Positions 142-12,724 are shown, numbered from the stretch's first letter. The stretch is DNA of 12,858 nucleotides from Candidatus Binatia bacterium (GCA_038245295.1 JBBRSP010000059.1:1-12858); one strand, 5' to 3'. The notes: generated by a model not told the origin, from the letters alone. Numbers and translations are program-made.

Positions 142-210
142 TTGACGCCGCTAGCTGTTGACTAGCAGGGACTCGAATTGACAGTGTGGAAGAGGGGCGA
201 AGACGCGACC

Positions 211-1461
211 ATGCCTGACTCCAATCCCTGGCTGGCGACACGACCGATTACCGACGCGGACGAACAGATCACGTCCGCGGAGCGTCTATTGCTGGAACGA
301 GCGCGGCTGGGTCTGCGCCTGATCCTGGTCGGCATCGTGGTCGTGCTGATCGGCTGGATCGTCGTCAGCCGCGGCGAGCAGCCGCGCATCACCATCGTTC
401 AGGGCTTCAACTTCGTTGCTGTCGCCGTCGCCTTGTGGGTGCTCAACGATCCGGCGCGCGGCACATTCAATCGCGTCGCCGGCGGCGCCGCCTACGCCGT
501 CACGATCGTCTGTACGGCGGCGGTCGGGATTCTCGCGGGCGACGCGACGACGCCGATCGCCATTCTGATCGGCATGGCGGTGATCGCCGGTACCATGCTG
601 CCGTGGAGCCCGTGGCTACAGCTCCTTGTCGTGCTGCTGACGAGTGCTGCCTGTGTCTGGACAGTCGTCTCCGTCGTGCCTTCACCGCCGCTGGGCTGGT
701 TCCGCAGCGCCGGCGCCATCGCCCCAACGCTGGTGTCGACCATCTACGTGTCGGATGTCCTGGGACGGCAGCGCGCCGCCGTCGCGCATGCGGAGCACGA
801 CCGGCGTGCTCGCGAGGCCGGACTACGCGAAGCCAACCGGCGCCTCGAGCAAGAGATCCAAGAACATCACCGTACCGAGGAAACGCTACGTTTTGCCATG
901 CGCGAGCTCGACCATCGGGTGAAGCACACGTTCGCTGTGGTGCAATCGGTTGCCGAGCAGACGCTGCGTTCCGCGGCGAATATGGACGAGTTCGGTGAAG
1001 CCTTCTCGGACCGCATCCGGTCCATGGCCAGCATCCACAACGCCCTGGCACAACGGCGCTGGGACGGCCTGGCACTGACCGATCTCGTCGATCTCGTTGT
1101 TGGTCCGTATCGTCATCATCACGGCAGTATCTCGATCGGCGGCGACGGCATCTTTGTCGCCGCGGAGTTGGTCCGCGTCCTTGGCATGACGCTGCACGAG
1201 CTGGCGACGAATTCAGCCAAGTACGGTGCCCTCTCCACGGCGCAGGGCCAGGTGACCATCACCTCGCAGGTCGACGGCGCGGCCCGCCTGCAGATCTCCT
1301 GGAGCGAGCGCGGCGGTCCGACCGTCAGCGAGCCAACGCGGCGCGGCTTCGGCATGCGCCTGATCGAGGAGGCGCTTGCCTACGAGGCGGACGGCCGTGT
1401 TGCGTTGTGGTTTTCCGGCGACGGCCTGTGTTGCGACATCGAGATCCCGGTTTCGGCATGA
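211..1461 (+). CDS. Membrane-bound sensor histidine kinase, HWE/HisKA_2 type
   Basis: About 5 hydrophobic segments, a coiled-coil linker, H-box ELDHRVKH, N-box LHELATNSAKYGALS, WxE motif WSERGGP and RRGFG. ATG 211 preferred over TTG 178 (AGAGGGG upstream). Confidence 0.92.
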   Translation: MPDSNPWLATRPITDADEQITSAERLLLERARLGLRLILVGIVVVLIGWIVVSRGEQPRITIVQGFNFVAVAVALWVLNDPARGTFNRVAGGAAYAVTIVCTAAVGILAGDATTPIAILIGMAVIAGTMLPWSPWLQLLVVLLTSAACVWTVVSVVPSPPLGWFRSAGAIAPTLVSTIYVSDVLGRQRAAVAHAEHDRRAREAGLREANRRLEQEIQEHHRTEETLRFAMRELDHRVKHTFAVVQSVAEQTLRSAANMDEFGEAFSDRIRSMASIHNALAQRRWDGLALTDLVDLVVGPYRHHHGSISIGGDGIFVAAELVRVLGMTLHELATNSAKYGALSTAQGQVTITSQVDGAARLQISWSERGGPTVSEPTRRGFGMRLIEEALAYEADGRVALWFSGDGLCCDIEIPVSA

Positions 1462-1853
1462 TCGAGCCGACCCTCAATGGCATGCGCATTCTCATCGTCG
1501 AGGACAACTTCGTCGTTGCCGATGCTTTGCGCTTCCTACTCAGCGGCTACGACGGCAAAGTCACCGCCATCGCGCCCAACCTGGAGCGCGGCTTTGCCGC
1601 TCTGGCCGCGGCGGCGATCGACATTGCCATCCTCGACATCAATCTCAACGGCACCAGTGTGGTCCCCCTGGCCGAGCACCTGCGAGCGAACAACATCCCG
1701 TTTGTCTTCGTGACCGGTTACGCGGACGAGACGCTCCTCCCAGAGCACCTGCGCACGCACCCCCGTTTCGATAAGCCCGTCGAAGCCGACCGCCTGATAC
1801 GTACCCTGATCGAGCTGACTCGCCCCCGCGGCTCGGGCCCGTTCGGGCTTTGA
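1458..1853 (+). CDS. Single-domain response regulator (receiver), PFxFATGY-like subfamily
   Basis: ATGA overlap with kinase stop (1458-1461); ILIVEDN acidic pocket, ILDINL phosphoacceptor, PFVFVTGY, DKP; no output domain. Confidence 0.92.
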   Translation: MIEPTLNGMRILIVEDNFVVADALRFLLSGYDGKVTAIAPNLERGFAALAAAAIDIAILDINLNGTSVVPLAEHLRANNIPFVFVTGYADETLLPEHLRTHPRFDKPVEADRLIRTLIELTRPRGSGPFGL

Positions 1854-2399: not shown

Positions 2400-3488
2400 A
2401 TGGTGCGTGCGCTGCCCGCAATCCGATGCCTGCCGAGCGGCGAGCAGGAGCTACTCCTCAAGGCGGCGCTGTTGCCGATAGGAGCCGGACTTGCGGCGTG
2501 GCGCGCGTGGCGTGCACGCAACACCTTCGATCATGTCGATCGTGGTTCGCTGCGCTTGCTCGCCCTCGTGCATTGCAACCTAGGGCGCAACCCCGCCGGC
2601 GCCGACGCCCTAGGCGACGATGCCGCTCAACTTCGCCACATTCACCGCGGCGCCTGGTAGCTTAATCAACGACTCATCGGCGCCGCGCGCCCGGTGCTCG
2701 ACGCGTTGCAGGCGGCCGGAATGACGCCGGTTCTGCTCAAGGGCGGCGCCCTCGGAATCACGGTCTACGGCGATGCCGGTGCGCGGCCGATGGAAGACAT
2801 CGATATCCTCGTGCGGCCGCATCAGGCGCTACACGCAGGAGGGATCCTCGCGGGACACGGCTTCGTTCCGCAGTATCGCTTCGACGAGCAACGCGTGCGC
2901 ACGCTCAATGCGGTCAACTTCAGCAGCACGACGAGCCCCGGCCATACATCCGGTGCCATCGATCTGCACTGGCACCTGTTGCCGGAACCTTGCGACGAGA
3001 GTTGCGACGAGGCTGTGCACACGCGCGCCAAACCGGCGCTGCTGCGCGACTTACCGGTCCATGTTCTCGATCCGACCGATGAGCTTCTGCTGGCCTGCGC
3101 TCACGGCATCCGTTGGAACCTGACGCCGCCAATTCGTTGGGCGGCCGATGCTCATCTCCTGGTGACGCGTCTGGCGGATACGATCGATTGGGCGAGGTTG
3201 GTCGACACGGCACGGCGTCGCGGTCTAACGCTGCCGGTACGTACGGCGCTGCGATACATCGCGAGCTCGCTCGCGACCCCGGTTCCTGATGCCGTGTTGA
3301 GGCAACTCGAGGAAACGACGCCGCGCACCAGCGAGCGTCTCGAGTTCTGGCTGCGCGTCTCACCGCTCGCCGAGCCGTGGTTCGGCGACGATTCGCGAAG
3401 ATGGTGCAAGCTTGAACCACGTGCCGCGCCCTCCCCTCAAGCCCTCTCGGTAGCCAATCCAACTGAGCTGGGAGAGGGAGGCGTCTAG
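2400..3488 (+). pseudogene. Nucleotidyltransferase family protein (NTP_transf_5-like), interrupted by in-frame TAG at 2658-2660
   Basis: ORFs 2247..2660 and 2694..3488 are in the same frame. N-terminal PSGEQELLLKAALL..AAWRAWR..DRGSLRLL joins across the stop (GAW*LNQRL) to VLLKGGAL..Y...GARPMEDIDILV, IDLHWHL, LLLACAHG and RWAAD. AGGAAG precedes ATG 2400. Confidence 0.85.
3427..3483. repeat. REP-like palindromic element overlapping the nucleotidyltransferase 3' end
   Basis: CCCTCCCCTCAAGCCCTCTC...GGGAGAGGGAGG; CCCTCTC (3442-3448) pairs with GAGAGGG (3472-3478). Resembles the widespread CCCTCTCCC/GGGAGAGGG repeat type. Confidence 0.5.
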
Positions 3489-3593
3489 CCGCCATCAGCG
3501 CTTTTCAGAAGGTGCAATATTGATCCTGTCTGGAACTTTATTTGCGACGCGCGACCAGCTACTCAACGCCGCAACACTGTAGGAGGACCCGCG

Positions 3594-4004
3594 ATGAGTA
3601 CTGCCCTGCTTGTTCTCGATCCGAAAGCCGCCAGCTTCGAGGACTTCGGCGATGAGATCGTCGTTATCCATAATGACAGCGGCGTGTTCTACTCGTTGAA
3701 GGGTAGGGCAATGGCTGTATGGCGCGGCCTGGCAGATGGTGTCGATCCGATGTCGATCGACCGGCCTGCGCCTGAGCTCGCGCCGGAAGAGGTCGAAACC
3801 ATCCAGCGTATGCTGGCGGAGCTCACGGCAAAGGCGATCATCGTGTCGACCGAACGAGCCACCGCTGCTTCGCCGTTGCAATGGCGCGATCTTGGCCCGG
3901 CTCGCTTCGAGAGCAACAGCGACTTCGACGACCTCATCCGTCTCGATCCGATCCATGACGTCTCCGACAGTGGCTGGCCACATAAGAAAACCGATTCGAA
4001 GTGA
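3594..4004 (+). CDS. PqqD-family / RiPP recognition element (RRE) protein with C-terminal DPIHDV..GWP tail
   Basis: Strong SD AGGAGG. Residues ~1-85 fit the RRE pattern (FEDFGDEIVVIHNDSGVFYSLKGRAMAVWRGL...MLAELTAKAII), followed by a linker and PARFESNSDFDDLIRLDPIHDVSDSGWP. Confidence 0.8.
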   Translation: MSTALLVLDPKAASFEDFGDEIVVIHNDSGVFYSLKGRAMAVWRGLADGVDPMSIDRPAPELAPEEVETIQRMLAELTAKAIIVSTERATAASPLQWRDLGPARFESNSDFDDLIRLDPIHDVSDSGWPHKKTDSK

Positions 4005-4963
4005 CTGCAACACCGCTCCACCTCGAGCTGGCGGGTGAGCCGTGGAAGCTCGAGGTCCCTGAGCGATGGCGCCCACGCGTCGATATTGCCTTCGGCCATC
4101 TCGCCGGCGCCGCTGTGGCCGAACCACGGGTCCGTGTTTCGTTACGCTGCAGCGCCAGCGCCGAGGAGCGGCGCTGGGCGACGGCTTTGGTCGCTAAACT
4201 TCCTGAAGCGGATGGCATTGCCGCAATCGACAACGAGGAGGGGTGGGTTCATGTGTCGCGCGTATCGATCGATCGCTGGGATCAGCGCGCGGGTAGCGGA
4301 GAATCGACGCTGCTCGATCTCCGTTACGAAGAGAATTACCTGGGGACCAACATTCTCCTCCGACAGATTGTCTGGCGCGCCCACGAGCGCGGCCTCGTCC
4401 CAGTCCACGCGGCGGCTGTTGGTGGTGACGGTGGCTTCTGGCTGATCCCAGCGGCCGCTGGGCAAGGCAAGTCGACGCTTGCCGCTGCCGCTGTGGCCGC
4501 CGGTCTACAAGCTCTCTCCGATGATTTCCTCTTGCTCGATCCGCAGACGCGAATCCTCCACAGCCTGTACGCAACCATCCGTTTGGAACCTGCGGCGCAT
4601 CGAATGGTCAGCGAGCATTTTGGCGAAGGCCGCCTGCGTATCGCTGCGCAACGCGACGACGACAAACTGCTGCTGGCTGCCGCCGACGCGTCGGCATTTG
4701 TGGCCGGCGGCCGGTTGCGCGGCATCCTGATCCTCAACCGGGTCGGTAAGATACGGATGGGGGAAGCCGTGGCGCCGGCGCGCGCGCTGCAATCCTTCGC
4801 AAGCTCGCTGCGCCTCCTGCCATCACTCGGCTTCCCAGCCGCTGCTGCGTTTCGGCACTTCAGCGAGCTCAGCCGGTCGGTCGAGTGCCGAGTGCTCGAG
4901 ACCGGCCCTGATCTGACGCGTCTCGTCGACTGCTTGCGAAACCATGCAGGGTGCGCCGTATGA
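4001..4963 (+). CDS. HPr kinase/phosphorylase-like P-loop serine kinase
   Basis: GTGA overlap with RRE gene; VHAAAVG, Walker A AAAGQGKST and LSDDFLLLD, the HprK/PEPCK-fold signature set. Confidence 0.85.
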   Translation: MTATPLHLELAGEPWKLEVPERWRPRVDIAFGHLAGAAVAEPRVRVSLRCSASAEERRWATALVAKLPEADGIAAIDNEEGWVHVSRVSIDRWDQRAGSGESTLLDLRYEENYLGTNILLRQIVWRAHERGLVPVHAAAVGGDGGFWLIPAAAGQGKSTLAAAAVAAGLQALSDDFLLLDPQTRILHSLYATIRLEPAAHRMVSEHFGEGRLRIAAQRDDDKLLLAAADASAFVAGGRLRGILILNRVGKIRMGEAVAPARALQSFASSLRLLPSLGFPAAAAFRHFSELSRSVECRVLETGPDLTRLVDCLRNHAGCAV

Positions 4964-6030
4964 CGACACCCGTCGCCCTCTTCGTGTTCAACCGTCCAAA
5001 CCTTACCCGCGCCGCGATCTCACGCCTGGCCGCCGTGCGTCCCGATCGCCTGCTGGTTGTTGCCGACGGCCCGCGCTCGCCGGCCGAAGCGTCACTGTGC
5101 GCGGAAACGCGCCGGATCGTGCGCGATGGTCTGAGCTGGGATGTCGATGTCGAGTTCCTCGAGAGTGTCGAGAATCTAGGATGCCGCCGGCGCTTCGAGT
5201 CGGGTCTCGACTGGGTCTTCGATCGCGTCGATCGCGCCATCCTTCTCGAGGACGACATCGAGGTGAGTCCGCTATTCTTTGACTTCGCTACGCTGGCCTT
5301 GGAGCGTTTCGAGACGACACCCGATGTGCGGATGATCTCCGGGCACAATGCGCTCGTGGAATATCCGCATGACGCGCGACCGTTCCTCAGCCGTGAGTGC
5401 TCGATCTGGGGCTGGGCAACATGGGCGGACCGCTGGCAAGACTACCGTTCCTGCTTCGCTCGGCAGCCGGCCGATACCATCGTAAAAGGCATCGCGCGGT
5501 ACGCGAGCTTCGACGTCCAGGCTCGCCTTCAGCGCCACCTGTTCGAGACGCGGCTATGGGAGAAGATCGACACGTGGGACATGCCGTGGAACATCTGGAA
5601 CCTGTCGACGGGCGGCTACTGCTTGGTTGTGCCGCGCAATCAGGTGATCAATCACGGCATCGGTCGCGATGCGACGCACACGAAGACCGAGGATGACCTG
5701 CGGGCAAACCTGCCGCTGTGTGCCTGGCTGCCGGCGGCCGACGCTCTGGAGGCTCCGGTCGTTCTCGCCGGCTACGAACGCGCCGTTACACTGCTCGAGC
5801 TCGTGCTGAACTATGACGACCCGCGGCGCTGGAAAGTCCTCTTCCAACGTCGCGGCCAGTTGCCGGCGCAAGCAAAAGGGCCCGGCTGGGAGATCATGCT
5901 CAGCCCGTTTGACCACCCCGAGGAAACCGCCGGACTGATCGCGCATCTCCGGCCACACCTCGGCGGACAGCAACTGGATCGTTTGGCGGAGATCTTCCCG
6001 GTGGTTGAACCTCTGCGGAGCGATGCTTGA
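4960..6030 (+). CDS. GT-A fold glycosyltransferase (FNRP...DGPR...NLG...LEDD type)
   Basis: ATGA overlap; PVALFVFNRP, VVADGPR, ENLGC, ILLEDD, IWGWATW, DTWD, PRNQVINHGIG..ATHT. Confidence 0.88.
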   Translation: MTTPVALFVFNRPNLTRAAISRLAAVRPDRLLVVADGPRSPAEASLCAETRRIVRDGLSWDVDVEFLESVENLGCRRRFESGLDWVFDRVDRAILLEDDIEVSPLFFDFATLALERFETTPDVRMISGHNALVEYPHDARPFLSRECSIWGWATWADRWQDYRSCFARQPADTIVKGIARYASFDVQARLQRHLFETRLWEKIDTWDMPWNIWNLSTGGYCLVVPRNQVINHGIGRDATHTKTEDDLRANLPLCAWLPAADALEAPVVLAGYERAVTLLELVLNYDDPRRWKVLFQRRGQLPAQAKGPGWEIMLSPFDHPEETAGLIAHLRPHLGGQQLDRLAEIFPVVEPLRSDA

Positions 6031-6679
6031 TGATGGTTGGGGATCCCAGTTCATGTCTTCCTTGAGCCTGATCTTGGTGACGAAGAATGCTGCTCCGTTT
6101 CTCGCTGCGGCGATGGTTCAGGCGGAAACCTGTCGGCGCGACTTCGATGCGCAGGTCATTGCCGTCGACGCCGGCTCCACCGACGGCACGTGGGAGAGCC
6201 TCGAGCTGATGACGAGCTGGACCGTGCAGCGGCAGCACCAGGCCGGCCTTGCCGCGGCGCGCAACGAGGCGGTCGAGTTGGCGACCGGCGAGGTCATCGC
6301 GTTTCTCGACGCCGATGACGAGTGGGCGCCGGACAAGACGACGAAGCAACTGCAGGCGCTCGAGCGCGAACCCGATACCGATGTGGTGAGTGCGCTGCTG
6401 CGCAAAGTCGGAGCCCTGGGAGACGGGACGATTCATCCGGCCTGGACCCCGTCGGGCTGCCTGTTTCGCCGCCGTGCCTTCGATCGTGTTGGACCCTTCG
6501 ACATCCGCTTGCGGCTTGCTTGCGATCACGAATGGTTCATGCGCGCGCGGCGCATGCAGCTGCGGATGAGTCTGATCGAAGAATGTCTGGTGCAGAAGAA
6601 CATCCACGACGCCAACCTGTCGCACCGCCGAGACGAATACCGGGCGGAGCTTCTCGAGGTTCTGAGAAGCCGTGACTGA
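6023..6679 (+). CDS. Glycosyltransferase family 2
   Basis: VIAVDAGSTDGT, GLAAARN, IAFLDADDEW, FDRVGPFD, DHEWFMR. Start is ATG 6023 (overlaps upstream stop) or ATG 6053. Confidence 0.9.
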   Translation: MLDDGWGSQFMSSLSLILVTKNAAPFLAAAMVQAETCRRDFDAQVIAVDAGSTDGTWESLELMTSWTVQRQHQAGLAAARNEAVELATGEVIAFLDADDEWAPDKTTKQLQALEREPDTDVVSALLRKVGALGDGTIHPAWTPSGCLFRRRAFDRVGPFDIRLRLACDHEWFMRARRMQLRMSLIEECLVQKNIHDANLSHRRDEYRAELLEVLRSRD

Positions 6680-7928
6680 GCTGCAGGTCCTGCACATCGT
6701 TCCGCGCTGGAGCGATGGTGGTGCCACGCCCACTATTTTGTCGGAAGCGAAACACGCTCGCGACAGCGGCTCCGGCATTCGGCATCGCGCGCTGACGTTG
6801 GAGCCCGGCGGGTCGTTGGCGCTCGTCAAGGAAGCACTGCGCCTGGGTCTGCGGTTACACGTTGCTCCTGCGCCTGCCGAAGAGGCGAAGATCGTGGAGG
6901 CGGCGCACGTCGTCGTCCTCCACTTCTGGAACACTCCCTCGTTGCGATGTTTCCTTGATCGCTGGCGCGGCACACCGCTCCGATGGATGGTCCACGCGCA
7001 TGTCAACGGCGTGCATCAACCGCAACGACTACCTCCGATGCTGGTCTCGAGCGCGTGTCATGCGGTGTTGACGAGCCCGCTGCCGAACGGAATCGCGACG
7101 CCGCCAGGTGTCACCGTCATCCCCGCGCCGGCCGACCTGGTGGCGGTCGGGGAGGTTGGTGCGGACACCGAACGCGGATCGATCATGCACACCGGGACGC
7201 TCAACGTCTTCAAGCTGTCGCCGCATTTCGTGACGCTCCATGCGCCCGTGGCCGACGCCGCCGATCCGATCCTGGTCATCGGATCGGGAGGTGATGAGGA
7301 GCGCTTTCAGGCCGAAGCGAGCGATCTCGGTGTTGCCGAGGGGTTTCGTTGGTTGGGGTTTCGCTCCGATCTTCGCGCTTCGTTTGCCAGCACGCGCCTG
7401 CTGTCGTATCCGGTCTCGTCGTTCTCCTATGCGTCGTCCGACAGGGTGATCCAGTTTGCCCAGTCGGCGGGTGTCCCCGTGCTCGTTCAACGGGATGCGC
7501 CCGTCGCCTATCTGGTGCGCGACGGCGTGACCGGGATTCTCGCCGCCGATCTCGATGACTTTCAACGCAAGCTCGTTGCCATCTCGCGTCGTGAGATTGA
7601 CCTACCTGAGCGCCGGATGGTGGCTCAGGCGGCATGGGTGGACCACGACCCCGCGCCCAAGCTCGCTAAGCTGCAGTTGATCTACCGGACGATCGAAGCC
7701 GAGGTTGCCCGACCGGTGGACGATGGTTTTCCGGACCTCCTGTCGTGGATCGACTATCAGGTCGGCGACGTGACGGAGTTGCAAGGGGCGCGTCGACCGC
7801 CGCTCAGCGAGTTGCGCGACGACAGTGTACTGGCGCGGCATCAACGCTGGGCTTGCGAGGGTGGCCTGGCGCAGTATGTCAATGCATTTCCCGGGCTCGC
7901 CGATTGCTTGCGATGGGTCAACGGATGA
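6672..7928 (+). CDS. GT-B fold glycosyltransferase (family 4-like, divergent)
   Basis: VLHIVPRWSDGGA N-terminus, LVIGSG, FRWLGFRSDL, AQSAGVPVLV, LVRDGVTGIL; 8-nt overlap with GT2 gene. Confidence 0.8.
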   Translation: MTELQVLHIVPRWSDGGATPTILSEAKHARDSGSGIRHRALTLEPGGSLALVKEALRLGLRLHVAPAPAEEAKIVEAAHVVVLHFWNTPSLRCFLDRWRGTPLRWMVHAHVNGVHQPQRLPPMLVSSACHAVLTSPLPNGIATPPGVTVIPAPADLVAVGEVGADTERGSIMHTGTLNVFKLSPHFVTLHAPVADAADPILVIGSGGDEERFQAEASDLGVAEGFRWLGFRSDLRASFASTRLLSYPVSSFSYASSDRVIQFAQSAGVPVLVQRDAPVAYLVRDGVTGILAADLDDFQRKLVAISRREIDLPERRMVAQAAWVDHDPAPKLAKLQLIYRTIEAEVARPVDDGFPDLLSWIDYQVGDVTELQGARRPPLSELRDDSVLARHQRWACEGGLAQYVNAFPGLADCLRWVNG

Positions 7929-8821
7929 TCGCGGTCAGAGATCCTCAGAGTCGCGGCATTCTCTATCTGGCGATGGGCGAGCGATTTGTCGCCGAGGCGG
8001 CCGTCTCGGCGGCTTCGGCACGGCGCCACCTGGGTCTGCCGATCACCATTTTCACCGATAGCCCGGTCGCGGCGGAGGCGACACGACTATTCGACTCGGT
8101 CATCGAGCTTCCGCGCTCGGGGCCGCGACCACATCGTGACAAGATCGTGGCGATGCGGTGAACGCCGTATGCGTGGACACTCTTCCTCGATACCGACACG
8201 TTCGTCGGCGCGCCGCTCGACGACGACTGGGAGCTCCTCGAGCAATTCGATCTGATTGCCGCGGCGGACCGCGGTTACGTCGATGCGTTTCCCCCGAATA
8301 CAGGTGTGCCCGAGTCCTTCAAGGAGCCCAACCTCGGCGTAGTGTTCTACCGGCAGTGTGCGGCAATCGAGCAGATGTTCGACGATGCCGTGCGGCGCTA
8401 CGACGAACTCACGACGCCGCGTAACGGGAGTCCCGCCGCTGTCTATTACGACCAAACGGCTGTCCGCCTCGCGCTGTACGCCTCTACGGTGCGCCTGACG
8501 ACGCTAACCGACGAGGACAACTGCCGCTTCGCCAACTACGGGAAGTTGAACGGTGCCGTGCGTGTCTTGCATGGTCGTTCGCCTCGGGCTGCGCACACCG
8601 CGGCGAACCTGCAACGCGTGCTCGAGCGCCTCAACGCGACAACCGTGCCGCGCGTGTTCGTTGCCGGCCGAATCTGGGCGTTGTGGCCGCGGCGGTTGCC
8701 GTTCACTCACGAATATCGCGTCGTGCGCCTCGGCTCGGCCAATCTCGTCGAGCTGTGGCCGCTCCTGTCGGCGGTTGCTGCGAAGATCGGCAGGATCCGT
8801 CGATACTTTCTGGGCGATTGA
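7925..8821 (+). pseudogene. GT8-like / nucleotide-diphospho-sugar transferase, interrupted by in-frame TGA at 8159-8161
   Basis: ATGA overlap at 7925-7928. RGILYLAMGERFVAEA..SA.S..ITIFTD..DKIVAMR*TPYAWTLFLDTDT continues in frame into EPNLGVVFYR and YDQTAVRLALY (ORF 8306..8821). The DxD motif lies after the stop. Confidence 0.82.
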
Positions 8822-8833
8822 AGGCCTGCTGGG

Positions 8834-10204
8834 CTAGAAGCCCTGGCCCTCTGGATGCCGCCGCGTCATGCCGGCGGCGGCGACGATGGCCAGCAGGAAA
8901 GTGAACGGGATGCGCATGCGTCCGGTGGCCACGACGATGGACGCTGCATAGAAATAGACGAGCGTCGCGACGACGAGAAACACCAACGACCAACGCCGCT
9001 GGCGAACAAGGCGGTACAAGCCAACGCTGAAGTACACCCACACGGTGAGATTGAGCATGAGTTGCGTGATCAGGAACAGCAGCTCGATGGCGCTGGTGCG
9101 GTCGAGAAATGCCGTCAGGCGATGCAGCTGTCGGCCGGCATCTGCCAGACCCGTCGTGCGTGCTTCGGGTGTGCCGAGGTCGAGCAAGTTCAGGAGATAG
9201 CGGCGCTCGCCGCCAAAACTCATCTCCGCCAGCGCCGAAATACTCTCGATCGTTGTGGCCAACGGGTAGCGTCGAAACACATCGCCGCTGGCGTCACGCA
9301 TCGCCGCGCCCCAATGCTGCGGGCCCAGCCGGTTCAAGGCTGCAGCGGCGGCTTCGAGACGATGTTGCGACACCGTCTCGAGAGACAAGTCGCGGGCGCG
9401 GGCTTCGACCTTGGAGGACGCGACGATCTGAGCATTGTAGCTGTAGGCGTTGCTCAGTCCTGGATATCCGGTGAGACGCTCGTTGCGCACGCTCCAGGCA
9501 ACCCCGAACAGCAGTGACACGAGCAACAGCGCTCCGGCGATGAGCCGGCGCCTGGTGTTGGCGATGCTGGTTCCATTTTCGGCCACCAGGACATAGGCGC
9601 TGAGCGGAATCCCCAGCAGCCCGGCGATCGGTCGGATCGCTGTCGCCATGCAGATGAAAAGGCCGGCGGTAAGCGCGGTTGCGAGGCGTGGTCGTGCGGC
9701 GGTGTCTGCAGCACTAAGGAACGCGGCAGCAACGGCAAAGGCGAAAGGAATGTCGCTCATCACAAGGTTGGCGTAAATCACGTGCGCCGGATCGATGGCC
9801 ATCAGCAGTCCAGCGAACGCCGCTGTCTGTTGATCGAACCACAGATTCGCCAGGCAAAACGTCAGGGCAACAATGGCACCGCCGAACAGTACCTGCAGGA
9901 GGATCAGCGGTGCGAGCGATGCGGCGCGACTATCGAGGAAGGCAAGCAGGAGCGGATATCCCGGGGTGCGGAAGACTTCGTAGGGCCATGGGTTGTGCAA
10001 GCTGTTGGTCGGCTCGTCGCTGGCAGTGAACGTGCCGAGTCGGCGCAAGCGCTCCGACAGATCGAGGTACTCTTGGGAGTCAGCCGTGGCGACGCGCTCG
10101 AAGGCGAAGCCGTGTCGCAGCGCTGGAGCCAGGCGCAGCGAGAGGCCAACGGCAATGAGAAACGACAGCAGCTTGGCGCGAGAAGTCATCGGCGGACGTT
10201 TCAT
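8834..10204 (-). CDS. ArnT/PMT-like GT-C membrane glycosyltransferase
   Basis: Polytopic membrane protein; DSQEY after first TM, FRTPGYPLLLA, LVMSDIPF, IRP, WSVRN, C-terminal GRMRIP. Start 10204 or 10189. Confidence 0.82.
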   Translation of the reverse strand: MKRPPMTSRAKLLSFLIAVGLSLRLAPALRHGFAFERVATADSQEYLDLSERLRRLGTFTASDEPTNSLHNPWPYEVFRTPGYPLLLAFLDSRAASLAPLILLQVLFGGAIVALTFCLANLWFDQQTAAFAGLLMAIDPAHVIYANLVMSDIPFAFAVAAAFLSAADTAARPRLATALTAGLFICMATAIRPIAGLLGIPLSAYVLVAENGTSIANTRRRLIAGALLLVSLLFGVAWSVRNERLTGYPGLSNAYSYNAQIVASSKVEARARDLSLETVSQHRLEAAAAALNRLGPQHWGAAMRDASGDVFRRYPLATTIESISALAEMSFGGERRYLLNLLDLGTPEARTTGLADAGRQLHRLTAFLDRTSAIELLFLITQLMLNLTVWVYFSVGLYRLVRQRRWSLVFLVVATLVYFYAASIVVATGRMRIPFTFLLAIVAAAGMTRRHPEGQGF

Positions 10205-10225: not shown

Positions 10226-10603
10226 TCAAGCACCCAGGTGTGATGCAAGGCTCATGTGCATGGGGTGCAGCGTCCGGTCGAAAGGATTGAGGACCAGGGC
10301 CAGGCTCTCGAGTGTGACGGCGCCGAGCAAGGCTACATCGTCGCCGTCACCCAGGATCACCGGGCTAACGGCGTCGACTCCCCTGTATGTGAATCGGCAC
10401 TCGGAGACGGCCCGGGAGATCTGGGTTCCGTCGGCCAACGTGAACTTCATGCGACGCTTGGTGCCTAAGCCCAAGGCGCGCCAGGTATCATTCGGCAAAA
10501 CGGAGTAGACTGCGCCGCTGTCGACGAGAAAGTCCTGCGAGCGCGAGGGACCGGCGTCGCGACTTACCTCAAGCTCCACGTAGGTGAGTCCCGTGAGAAA
10601 CAA
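10226..10603 (-). CDS. Clan AA (retropepsin-like) single-domain aspartic protease
   Basis: FLVDSGAVYSVLP catalytic motif, FTLADG, LLGAVTLE..LVLNPF. Start uncertain (TTG 10603, or ACG 10594 at the expected Met of 'MGLTYV'). Confidence 0.85.
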   Translation of the reverse strand: MFLTGLTYVELEVSRDAGPSRSQDFLVDSGAVYSVLPNDTWRALGLGTKRRMKFTLADGTQISRAVSECRFTYRGVDAVSPVILGDGDDVALLGAVTLESLALVLNPFDRTLHPMHMSLASHLGA

Positions 10604-10640: not shown

Positions 10641-11321
10641 CTACGCCGTCAGGCCGGCGCGCTCGGTGGACGGGCTAGAGGACCGTCGCGTTCTTCGGCG
10701 CCGAGCCCAACCCGTGACGATACGGAAGGTGAGGGCGGCCAAGGCTGCCGCGAGCAGCCCTTGATAGATCACCTGATCCGACGCGTCGGCGAGTCCGTCA
10801 GCCCGCTGGCCGAACACCCGGCCGGCGTAGGACTGCGCGAAGATGAACCAGATGGCGTACATCCCGAAGGTTTGTAGGAGCTTCCAGTTGCGCCGAAGCG
10901 TCTTCATCGACCAATCATTCGACGTCAGCGCCATCAGGGCGATCACGACATAGACGGAGCCGCCGCCGAGAAGGGTGACGATGCCCGGTTCTTTGCCGCT
11001 GACGACGAAGTAGCCGATCAGCGCCGCCAGGTGGATGAAGTGCGACAGGGCGAAGGAGAGGCCGAGGTAGCGCCGCTTCTGGGCCAACCAGCGTGTGCCA
11101 GTCGAGGGGAAGGTTCGCGATAGCGGGGTGGCGAGGAAGGGCAGCAGGAAGATGAGAAAGGATTGGCGCGCCGTGTGGCGCGTGAACATTTGCAGGCCGT
11201 GCTCGGTGAAGCCGCCGCTCAGGTGCCGGATGGCCAGTAGCGCCGAGCTCAGTAGGACAAGAGCGTAGAGCTCCCAGGGGATGCGTCGTGACCCAACGGT
11301 GGATTCATTCTGCTTAGCCAT
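10641..11321 (-). CDS. MsrQ/YedZ-like ferric reductase-type transmembrane protein
   Basis: About 6 TM segments; RHTAR, RRYLGLSFALSHFIHL, LTSND....L...WKLL. ATG 11321 with GGAG upstream preferred to 11363. Confidence 0.75.
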   Translation of the reverse strand: MAKQNESTVGSRRIPWELYALVLLSSALLAIRHLSGGFTEHGLQMFTRHTARQSFLIFLLPFLATPLSRTFPSTGTRWLAQKRRYLGLSFALSHFIHLAALIGYFVVSGKEPGIVTLLGGGSVYVVIALMALTSNDWSMKTLRRNWKLLQTFGMYAIWFIFAQSYAGRVFGQRADGLADASDQVIYQGLLAAALAALTFRIVTGWARRRRTRRSSSPSTERAGLTA

Positions 11322-11489
11322 GCGCCGCGTATACTCCACGAGGTCGGTGGACGAAAAGGACAACCGACCGGCGATTTCTGCACGATCGTGGCCTGGATCG
11401 AGTGTCGAGGCGGTCTGATGACCGAGTAATCCTTACAACCCCCGCGACCCTCGCGCCGCGTTCCTGAGTCTGGGCCCCCCATCCACTCC

Positions 11490-11674: not shown

Positions 11675-11827
11675 CTCAACAACGTGGAGCGCGCCGATCC
11701 GCGGCGCCTGCCGGTGGTTCCCCTACCTACGGGCGGGGCGCCAGGGAGTGGCGCGCTCCGACCTCATCCCTTGCCGACGGGTACGCTGACCAGATAGCCT
11801 CCGGAGTAGTCCGTTTGAGGAGGCGCC

Positions 11828-12169: not shown

Positions 12170-12724
12170 TCAAGCGCCGCAGCCGCCCAATGCGTTGTTC
12201 ACCGCCGCGATGATCTCCGAGATGTCGATCGCTCCATCGTGGTTGGCATCACCCGCCAGACAGCTCGAGGTGGCGGCGCCACCGAGGGCGATGTTGGTCA
12301 TGATGAGCAGCTCATCAATCGTGACTTCGCCAGTGCCACCACAGTCGCCGGTGCATGCGGGCGCCGCGGTGGGCGTTGGCGTAGCGGTTGGTGTTGGTGT
12401 GTGACCACCCGGCGTCACCGTCGCGGCGGGCGCGGCCGGATTGATCGGCAAGGCGATCTGACCCCAGTGTGCTGCCGCAAAGTTCCATGACATCGCCACG
12501 GTGCCGACTCCGATACCGGTGCTCTGCGACGCCGTGACCGAGCTTGCCGGGTTACCGCTGACTTCCGAGGCGGTGAACAACGCAACCTGCCCGGTTCCGG
12601 TTGGTGTCGGCTTGGCGTCAGGGTTAGTGCCGAGCACGTCCAGGATCATCTTTCCCGTGGCGTTGGCCGCATTGAGCAAAGCAGGGGCGCCGCCATCGCC
12701 CGACTTGGTGGCGTAGGCGCCTAG
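12170..12724 (-). pseudogene. 3' fragment of a secreted protein with PT-rich linker and Cys-flanked dockerin-like C-terminal domain
   Basis: TPTPTATPTPT linker then CTGDCGGTGEVTIDELLIMTNIALG..SCLAGDANHDGAIDISEIIAAVNNALGGC. The frame stays open upstream of 12679 (LGAYATKSGDGGAPA) up to the IS-like end; no signal peptide or convincing start. Confidence 0.75.

Follow-up and report, generated by a model that had tools for sequence, protein, structure and literature searches.

We report here a conserved bacterial gene cassette in which a RiPP (ribosomally synthesized and posttranslationally modified peptide) recognition element (RRE) protein carries a leader-like motif of its own, followed by a conserved tail with an Asp at a constant distance from that motif. 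The cassette lies in a 12,858-nucleotide stretch of DNA from a Candidatus Binatia bacterium (GCA_038245295.1 JBBRSP010000059.1:1-12858; the window), which is the entire contig C59 of the host genome (6.6 Mb, 96.6% completeness), and its gene content is visible only up to the contig ends. Seven plus-strand genes occupy positions 2400-8821, with the coordinates given in an original prediction made from the sequence: a PF14907 transferase, the RRE protein, an HprK-like kinase, and four glycosyltransferases or glycosyltransferase-like proteins (Table 1). New here are the lack of an invariant Ser or Thr in the tail, the loss of a His in a sister subfamily, and the constant Asp at position +18, counted from the leader aromatic residue. 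Our tentative reading, to which we give somewhat less than an even chance, is that the RRE protein is a protein-bound glycan carrier: with its own leader and the kinase bound, it would be primed by the kinase at Asp118, and the transferase and glycosyltransferases would then add sugars.

The RRE protein of the window has no Pfam match itself, and its relatives carry PF05402. Its AlphaFold2 model (predicted local distance difference test score, pLDDT, of 88) matches the lasso RRE TbiB1 (Z 8.9, root-mean-square deviation 3.4, 83 residues aligned), and a Foldseek match was obtained with E 1.4e-3. The architecture of the family consists of the RRE, a variable linker, an FxxPxL leader motif, and the conserved tail; a motif of this type is what lasso and linear polyphosphorylated peptide (LPP) RREs bind (PMC13381572). 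In the window, the leader motif is degenerate, with LxPAxF instead of FxxPxL. The leader segment is modeled as a confident strand (pLDDT 95, residues 101-110), compared with a pLDDT of 58-60 for the tail, and it is predicted to fold back on the RRE in cis. Conservation is 0.81 in the tail versus 0.43 in the RRE, a difference that is inflated and partly circular because the DPIH pattern of the tail was itself used to collect the loci.

Among the 318 sequences whose leader motif is recognizable, 317 have the Asp exactly 18 residues after the leader aromatic. No such motif was recognizable in 59 of 377 sequences, including the window's subtype, and in the window the spacing from L100 to D118 is also 18. 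The His at +21 is invariant in the DPIH family. A sister subfamily (n = 15; 14 loci and one protein), which was retrieved with a hidden Markov model (HMM) rather than with the DPIH pattern, occurs among the same neighbors and has Asp+18 in 15/15 members, with His+21 in 0/15 and Ser/Thr+9 in 4/15; its tails end in LALD[PA]P, and a GT4 gene usually precedes. This register narrows a vague scaffold idea to a question about one residue. In LPP, the consensus YxxPxVLxHQxIxFETxxS places the Ser phosphorylated by LppK at +18 (PMC13381572, including one supplementary row), and BsfA is phosphorylated by BsfK on a Ser at +19 (PMC10368454).

We also observed five self-leadered RREs beside HprK-like kinases that have a Ser at +18 (L206, L144) or +17 (L205, L207, L209), possibly representing separate, undescribed RiPP-like families. 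In L206, the RRE is fused to a lasso-like precursor and has B2 peptidase and PF14907 genes as neighbors, and the 10 kb fetched for this locus contain no cyclase; L144 lies ~5 kb from a B2 gene, and three of the Ser-type self-leadered RREs end in LILSGE. In quick trees (support 93-95), the Ser-type kinases cluster with lasso kinases and are separated from the Asp-tail kinases; the kinase trees were quick and FastTree reconstructions, from which four and two rows lacking the anchor motif were omitted.

In natural RRE-tail-RRE-RRE-kinase fusions (P0146, P0148, P0149, P0158, and P0159), the tail is internal, so that it seems to require no free end and no cleavage. The set P0144-P0159 comprises tandem two- and three-RRE proteins and three-RRE-kinase fusions. 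In L129:6115-7842, one open frame joins GT4 to the RRE-tail, a single case that may be a lost stop.

The His-Lys-Asp-Asp catalytic motif of HprK-like RiPP kinases (PMC9266682) is retained at its four positions in 80, 80, 77, and 80 of the 80 kinases compared, and as H136, K157, D174, and D175 in the window kinase. Prediction of a complex between this kinase and the RRE protein gave a score of 0.77, against 0.00 for the best control; the mark used for this score is reached by 116 of 157 solved pairs and by 2 of 215 mismatched pairs. The runs shared at least 58% of contacts, with a partner pLDDT of at least 73, and the confident interface joins RRE residues 14-34 to residues 258-291 in the C-terminal helices of the kinase. 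The RRE is thus predicted to bind the HprK-like kinase. No solved structural relative of the transferase or the kinase was found by sequence.

Co-occurrence was counted in the best 80 of 558 confirmed GTDB relatives, of which 41 loci of at least 15 kb form a long subset; the loci were collected with the DPIH tail pattern, and the neighbor profiles were built in this analysis. The kinase is present in 72/80 loci (37/41 long loci), GT2 in 68/80 (39/41), and PF14907 in 52/80 (35/41), confirming that the predicted gene set co-occurs elsewhere. GT4 is found in 22/80 loci (13/41), as is a full MsbA-like ATP-binding cassette (ABC) gene (22/80; 15/41), and the window-type GT-A protein, which marks the window's subtype, in 11/80 (6/41). 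The gene combination of the window also occurs, at times rearranged, in L003, L004, L046, L129, L130, L134, and L136. Sulfotransferases, methyltransferases, and further glycosyltransferase families are variable neighbors. The GT8-like gene is accessory, its family occurring in 0/80 GTDB loci, 0/300 class genomes, and 1/15 metagenome loci.

The tail pattern matches ~630 stored GTDB stretches from many phyla, with 558 confirmed in the scanned part, and 1,273 clusters (50% identity), also from many phyla, were found at E 1e-30 or better. We found no description of the cassette in the literature, where coverage of subscription papers was thin, and the tail motifs had no relevant match in the supplements of PMC13381572 or in one small supplementary file of PMC12710340. 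The cassette would account for part of the long "PqqD-only" proteins left unassigned by RRE surveys (PMC12710340), and PF14907 enzymes would gain a defined substrate.

In the proposed mechanism, the RRE protein would bind its own leader-like motif and the HprK-like kinase, which would phosphorylate Asp118 in the tail. The first sugar would be attached by a PsmN-like transferase and the glycan then elongated on the RRE protein by the glycosyltransferases; it may end up on the cell surface. We infer that the tail is covalently modified, at the Asp; a labile acyl phosphate at this residue would be compatible with a carrier that is recycled and works without a protease. According to PMC6993621, attachment of hexose to phospho-Ser depends on PsmN, and PsmN-dependent products are +hexose, not + nucleoside monophosphate, so that the predicted nucleotidylation step is not supported. 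The fixed leader-Asp spacing and the predicted kinase complex make the RRE protein the leading candidate for the predicted scaffold; phosphorylation of a Ser, as in paeninodin, is not supported, the tail having no invariant Ser/Thr. If the Asp reading is true, acyl-phosphate chemistry and a protein-carrier route would be added to bacterial glycan biosynthesis. A more general proposal, which we consider rather unlikely, is that of cross-phylum "glycan carrier proteins," recyclable, lipid-free, and protease-free, on which a PsmN-like enzyme and glycosyltransferases would build an oligosaccharide at an aspartyl phosphate, and which would have evolved from RiPP machinery through replacement of Ser by Asp.

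Several observations weigh against the carrier reading. To our knowledge, no HprK-like kinase forms an acyl phosphate, and a literature search for one found none. The Asp-tail kinases have the same H/K/D/D set as the Ser-type and lasso kinases, with no convincing acid-specific residue. In the model of the complex, the tail (110-129) is outside the confidently placed residues, so that the model does not demonstrate active-site contact, and the complex score may reflect a general likeness to solved RRE-enzyme pairs. The Ser variants amount to only five loci from three lineages, Ser/Thr occupies +9 in 294/353 tails, and PF14907 is missing from 28/80 loci (6/41 long loci) and the kinase from 8/80. 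The reading does not explain how a glycan bound to a cytoplasmic protein would be exported; the full MsbA-like ABC gene is confined to part of the loci and absent from the window, a short whole contig. LppK refuses even Thr or Tyr replacing Ser3, and deletion of lppN in a heterologous host brought no change (PMC13381572).

The main rival explanation takes the tail to be a permanent phospho-mimic (pseudo-substrate) or docking motif and the RRE protein to be a scaffold or activator that brings together the kinase, the PF14907 enzyme, and the glycosyltransferases, whose substrate would be a free sugar, the end of a glycan, or a different protein. We regard this as a serious possibility, well short of even. 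A replacement of Ser by Asp at the LPP register is a classic phospho-mimic, the confident predicted interface is the RRE sheet and not the tail, and the distal leader of LPP was proposed to bind modifying enzymes (PMC13381572). Moreover, the loci lie amid sulfotransferases, methyltransferases, and polysaccharide genes, and the tandem RRE repeats resemble scaffolds. However, the exact spacing of 18 residues is not required of a mere dock, no gene for an alternative substrate is conserved in the loci, and the characterized HprK-like RiPP kinases use an RRE-bound peptide (PMC10368454).

Alternatively, the tail could be the acceptor via a hydroxyl or imidazole group, at Thr/Ser+9 or His+21. The frequency of Ser/Thr at +9, the invariant His of the DPIH family, and the retention of the catalytic base Asp in the kinase are in line with this. 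We nevertheless consider it unlikely: 19/353 tails have no Ser/Thr at all between -12 and +10 of the Asp, the sister subfamily mostly lacks the first residue and entirely lacks the second among the same neighbors, and in LppB-LppA the strand bound to the RRE ends at +9 (PMC13381572).

A separate precursor or peptidase encoded elsewhere and used in trans would result in an LPP-like released peptide. Short precursors are easily overlooked, MsbA-like exporters occur in some of the loci, and a B2-like gene is present elsewhere in 21 of the 50 host genomes searched (of 80 hosts). There was no B2 match in the remaining 29/50 or in the host genome of the window, the RRE cleft is predicted to be occupied by its own leader, and small intergenic open reading frames (ORFs) with a leader motif were found at about the level of chance (16/926, none conserved), whereas precursors were obvious in a comparable scan of lasso control loci. 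Use of such genes in trans appears to be a slim prospect.

The reading of the locus as a fragment of a lasso peptide cluster is largely refuted and in our estimate very improbable. The RRE weakly matches lasso PqqD models (31/44 members), and the kinase and PF14907 are lasso tailoring families. Yet neither a cyclase nor a B2 peptidase (PF13471) was found in any of the 80 loci, and the same cyclase profile gave 6 matches in 20 B2 control loci. The Asp-tail kinases branch apart from the B2-locus kinases (support 95 and 93, two quick trees), and the lasso RREs of the control loci are mostly short and without a tail. An Asn synthase near the sister locus L146 was rejected as a cyclase, having the N-terminal Cys of AsnB. 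The conserved module is cyclase-free and B2-free as predicted, and for the window itself, profile and small-ORF checks agree on the absence of a cyclase, B2 peptidase, radical SAM enzyme, and separate precursor.

The window holds a damaged copy of the cassette, the transferase and the last glycosyltransferase being broken by three premature stops, and this copy is not supported as a working system. Neither the second TAG of the PF14907 gene nor the TGA of the last gene had been part of the original prediction. In the PF14907 gene, a premature TAG at 2658-2660 lies 5' of the catalytic KG..DxD motif, at a position where Tyr is the commonest residue in aligned homologues (20/54). A second early TAG (3486-3488) directly follows the dispersed repeat, of which there are 3 other weak genomic copies on C1, C11, and C12 (blastn, E 5e-5 to 0.007), and the C terminus of homologous PF14907 proteins runs on in frame past this stop to ~3590. 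The last glycosyltransferase is interrupted by an in-frame TGA at 8159-8161, a position occupied by Arg in its four closest homologues. X2, a second sample from the same study, yielded contigs that span 2485-2988 and 8085-8576 with zero differences, and so the stops at 2658 and 8159 are not assembly errors; the TAG at 3486 is covered by the probable source run X1 only, not by X2. The kinase, GT-A, GT2, and GT4 genes have uninterrupted frames, with most conserved columns retained. The ratio of nonsynonymous to synonymous substitution rates (dN/dS) against L127 is ~0.2 for the RRE, kinase, and GT-A genes, with a dS of 1.1-1.8 that makes it uninformative on recent decay.

Read-through of the internal stops by recoding or suppression, which would leave the window copy active, has a minimal probability. 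In its favor, the frames are open and conserved on either side of each stop, and both samples have the stops fixed. Against it, the stops comprise two codons, TAG and TGA, that serve as ordinary stops nearby, ordinary residues occupy these positions in homologues, neither PylS nor a CUA/UCA suppressor tRNA was found, and the transferase also lost 12/63 conserved columns versus 2/37 in the GT-A gene.

The host genome has an intact paralogous cassette of the commoner DPIH type on contig C2, with RRE-tail, kinase, GT2, and two PF14907 genes. It is surrounded by a polysaccharide locus with nucleotide-sugar genes and CapD-like dehydratase, 2-epimerase, RmlD-like, and WbaP-like genes. Its RRE paralogue matches PF05402 (E 2.4e-10), and according to the kinase trees its kinase and that of the window did not arise by recent duplication. 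The remaining genes of the window may be complemented by this cassette or may be decaying. The window copy is a poor test object, and the C2 copy is suited to testing.

Table 1. Coordinates of the cassette and other features. Positions refer to the window unless a locus is given.
Feature	Position	Strand	Evidence or remark
PF14907 (PsmN/LppN-like) transferase, pseudogene	2400-3593	+	Pfam match E 1.8e-38; called ORF 2400-3488
Short dispersed repeat within 3' end of PF14907 gene	3427-3480	.	blastn
AGGAGG ribosome-binding site, 7 nt 5' of RRE start	3581-3586	+	sequence
RRE protein gene, 136 residues	3594-4004	+	AlphaFold2 fold match
RRE (PqqD-like) domain, residues 1-88 (14-34, predicted kinase contact)	3594-3857	+	
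Built-in leader-like segment, residues 100-109	3891-3920	+	modeled as confident strand
Conserved tail D110-P129 (LDPIHDV..GWP)	3921-3980	+	Asp118 codon 3945-3947
HprK-like P-loop kinase	4001-4963	+	TIGR04352 E 2e-11; His136/Lys157/Asp174/Asp175 intact
GT-A fold glycosyltransferase-like protein (GNT-I/GT2 look-alike)	4960-6030	+	weak GNT-I match; atlas look-alikes
GT2 glycosyltransferase	6023-6679	+	true start probably 6053
GT4 (GT-B) glycosyltransferase	6672-7928	+	
GT8-like GT-A glycosyltransferase, pseudogene	7925-8821	+	PF01501 matched by 4/26 homologues
Intact C2 cassette	L001:14105-16434 (GT2 14105-14854, kinase 14858-15979, RRE 15958-16434), L001:5925-8211 (both PF14907 genes)		
Sister subfamily loci	L142, L143, L145, L146, L149, L200, L201, L204, L210-L214, L217		
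Ser-type RREs	L206:4895-5356, L144:4552-4965, L207:4980-5363, L209:4977-5360, L205:1837-2232		
Membrane HWE-family histidine kinase and single-domain receiver	178-1853	+	upstream of cassette
Dispersed intergenic repeats	1858-2296, 11686-11763		~110 and 37 blastn matches in host genome
PMT_2 (GT-C) membrane glycosyltransferase	8834-10204	-	convergent
Clan AA aspartic protease	10226-10603	-	
MsrQ-like membrane protein	10641-11363	-	
End of Pro/Thr-linker protein with EF-hand-like terminal domain	12170-12679	-	

The predicted organization of seven co-oriented genes with five overlaps is real. Six of the genes (3594-8821) are joined by overlaps of 4, 4, 8, 8, and 4 nt, as read from the sequence; the one at 6023 hinges on the choice of start, homologues starting at the in-frame ATG 6053. 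Scans for promoters and terminators gave chance-level results only. Outside the cassette (Table 1), the PMT_2 gene was excluded as a member, having no homologue in the 80 loci.

By comparison with known systems, the original prediction, which knew of no characterized product for this architecture, must be amended, since cyclase-free RRE/HprK/nucleotidyltransferase sets were published in 2026 as the LPP clusters (LppA/K/B/S/D/N) of Bacillota, which however have a separate precursor and a peptidase (PMC13381572). LPP clusters and the cassette have in common an RRE, an HprK-like kinase, and an uncharacterized NTP transferase (broken in the window), the lack of a cyclase, a location in polysaccharide loci, in part an MsbA-like ABC gene, and an acceptor position 18 residues past the leader aromatic. 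LPP differs in its separate precursor, discrete RRE, signal-peptidase-like protease, and Ser acceptor. In the cassette, by contrast, the RRE protein itself contains the leader and core, a conserved peptidase is lacking, Asp stands at the acceptor position, GT2/GT4 genes belong to the core set, and many phyla are represented. An LppS archaeal-type signal peptidase was not found in the window or among 57 recurring neighbor families, singleton neighbors not having been scanned.

With the lasso phospho- and phosphoglyco-systems (paeninodin PadeK, pseudomycoidin PsmK/PsmN, Bsf; PMC6993621, PMC10368454, PMC9266682), the cassette shares the H-K-D-D kinase, the PsmN-like DxD transferase, a YxxPxL-type leader motif, and the TbiB1-like RRE fold. 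Unlike these, it has no cyclase, B2 peptidase, or precursor, no invariant Ser, and a separate kinase branch. In how it works, the cassette resembles the tailoring module of LPP and Psm, but it belongs to neither the lasso nor the LPP family because it has no cyclase, peptidase, or separate precursor and has Asp in place of Ser. A PqqD-like protein and an HprK-like kinase are also shared with the HPr-rel-A, HprK-rel-B, and SynChlorMet systems (TIGR04352, TIGR04353, TIGR04355, TIGR04248, TIGR04249), with weak HMM matches. Membership of HPr-rel-A, to which the original prediction had likened the gene trio, does not hold: the window kinase scores 43.5 bits against the TIGR04352 cut-off of 200, and TIGR04353 is not matched by the window RRE and only weakly by 4/44 family members.

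Assembly of glycans primed on undecaprenyl phosphate employs a phosphorylated carrier, a priming transferase, elongating glycosyltransferases, and an ABC exporter. A lipid-priming transferase of this kind occurs in only 1/80 loci of the cassette, whose proposed carrier is, in contrast, a protein.

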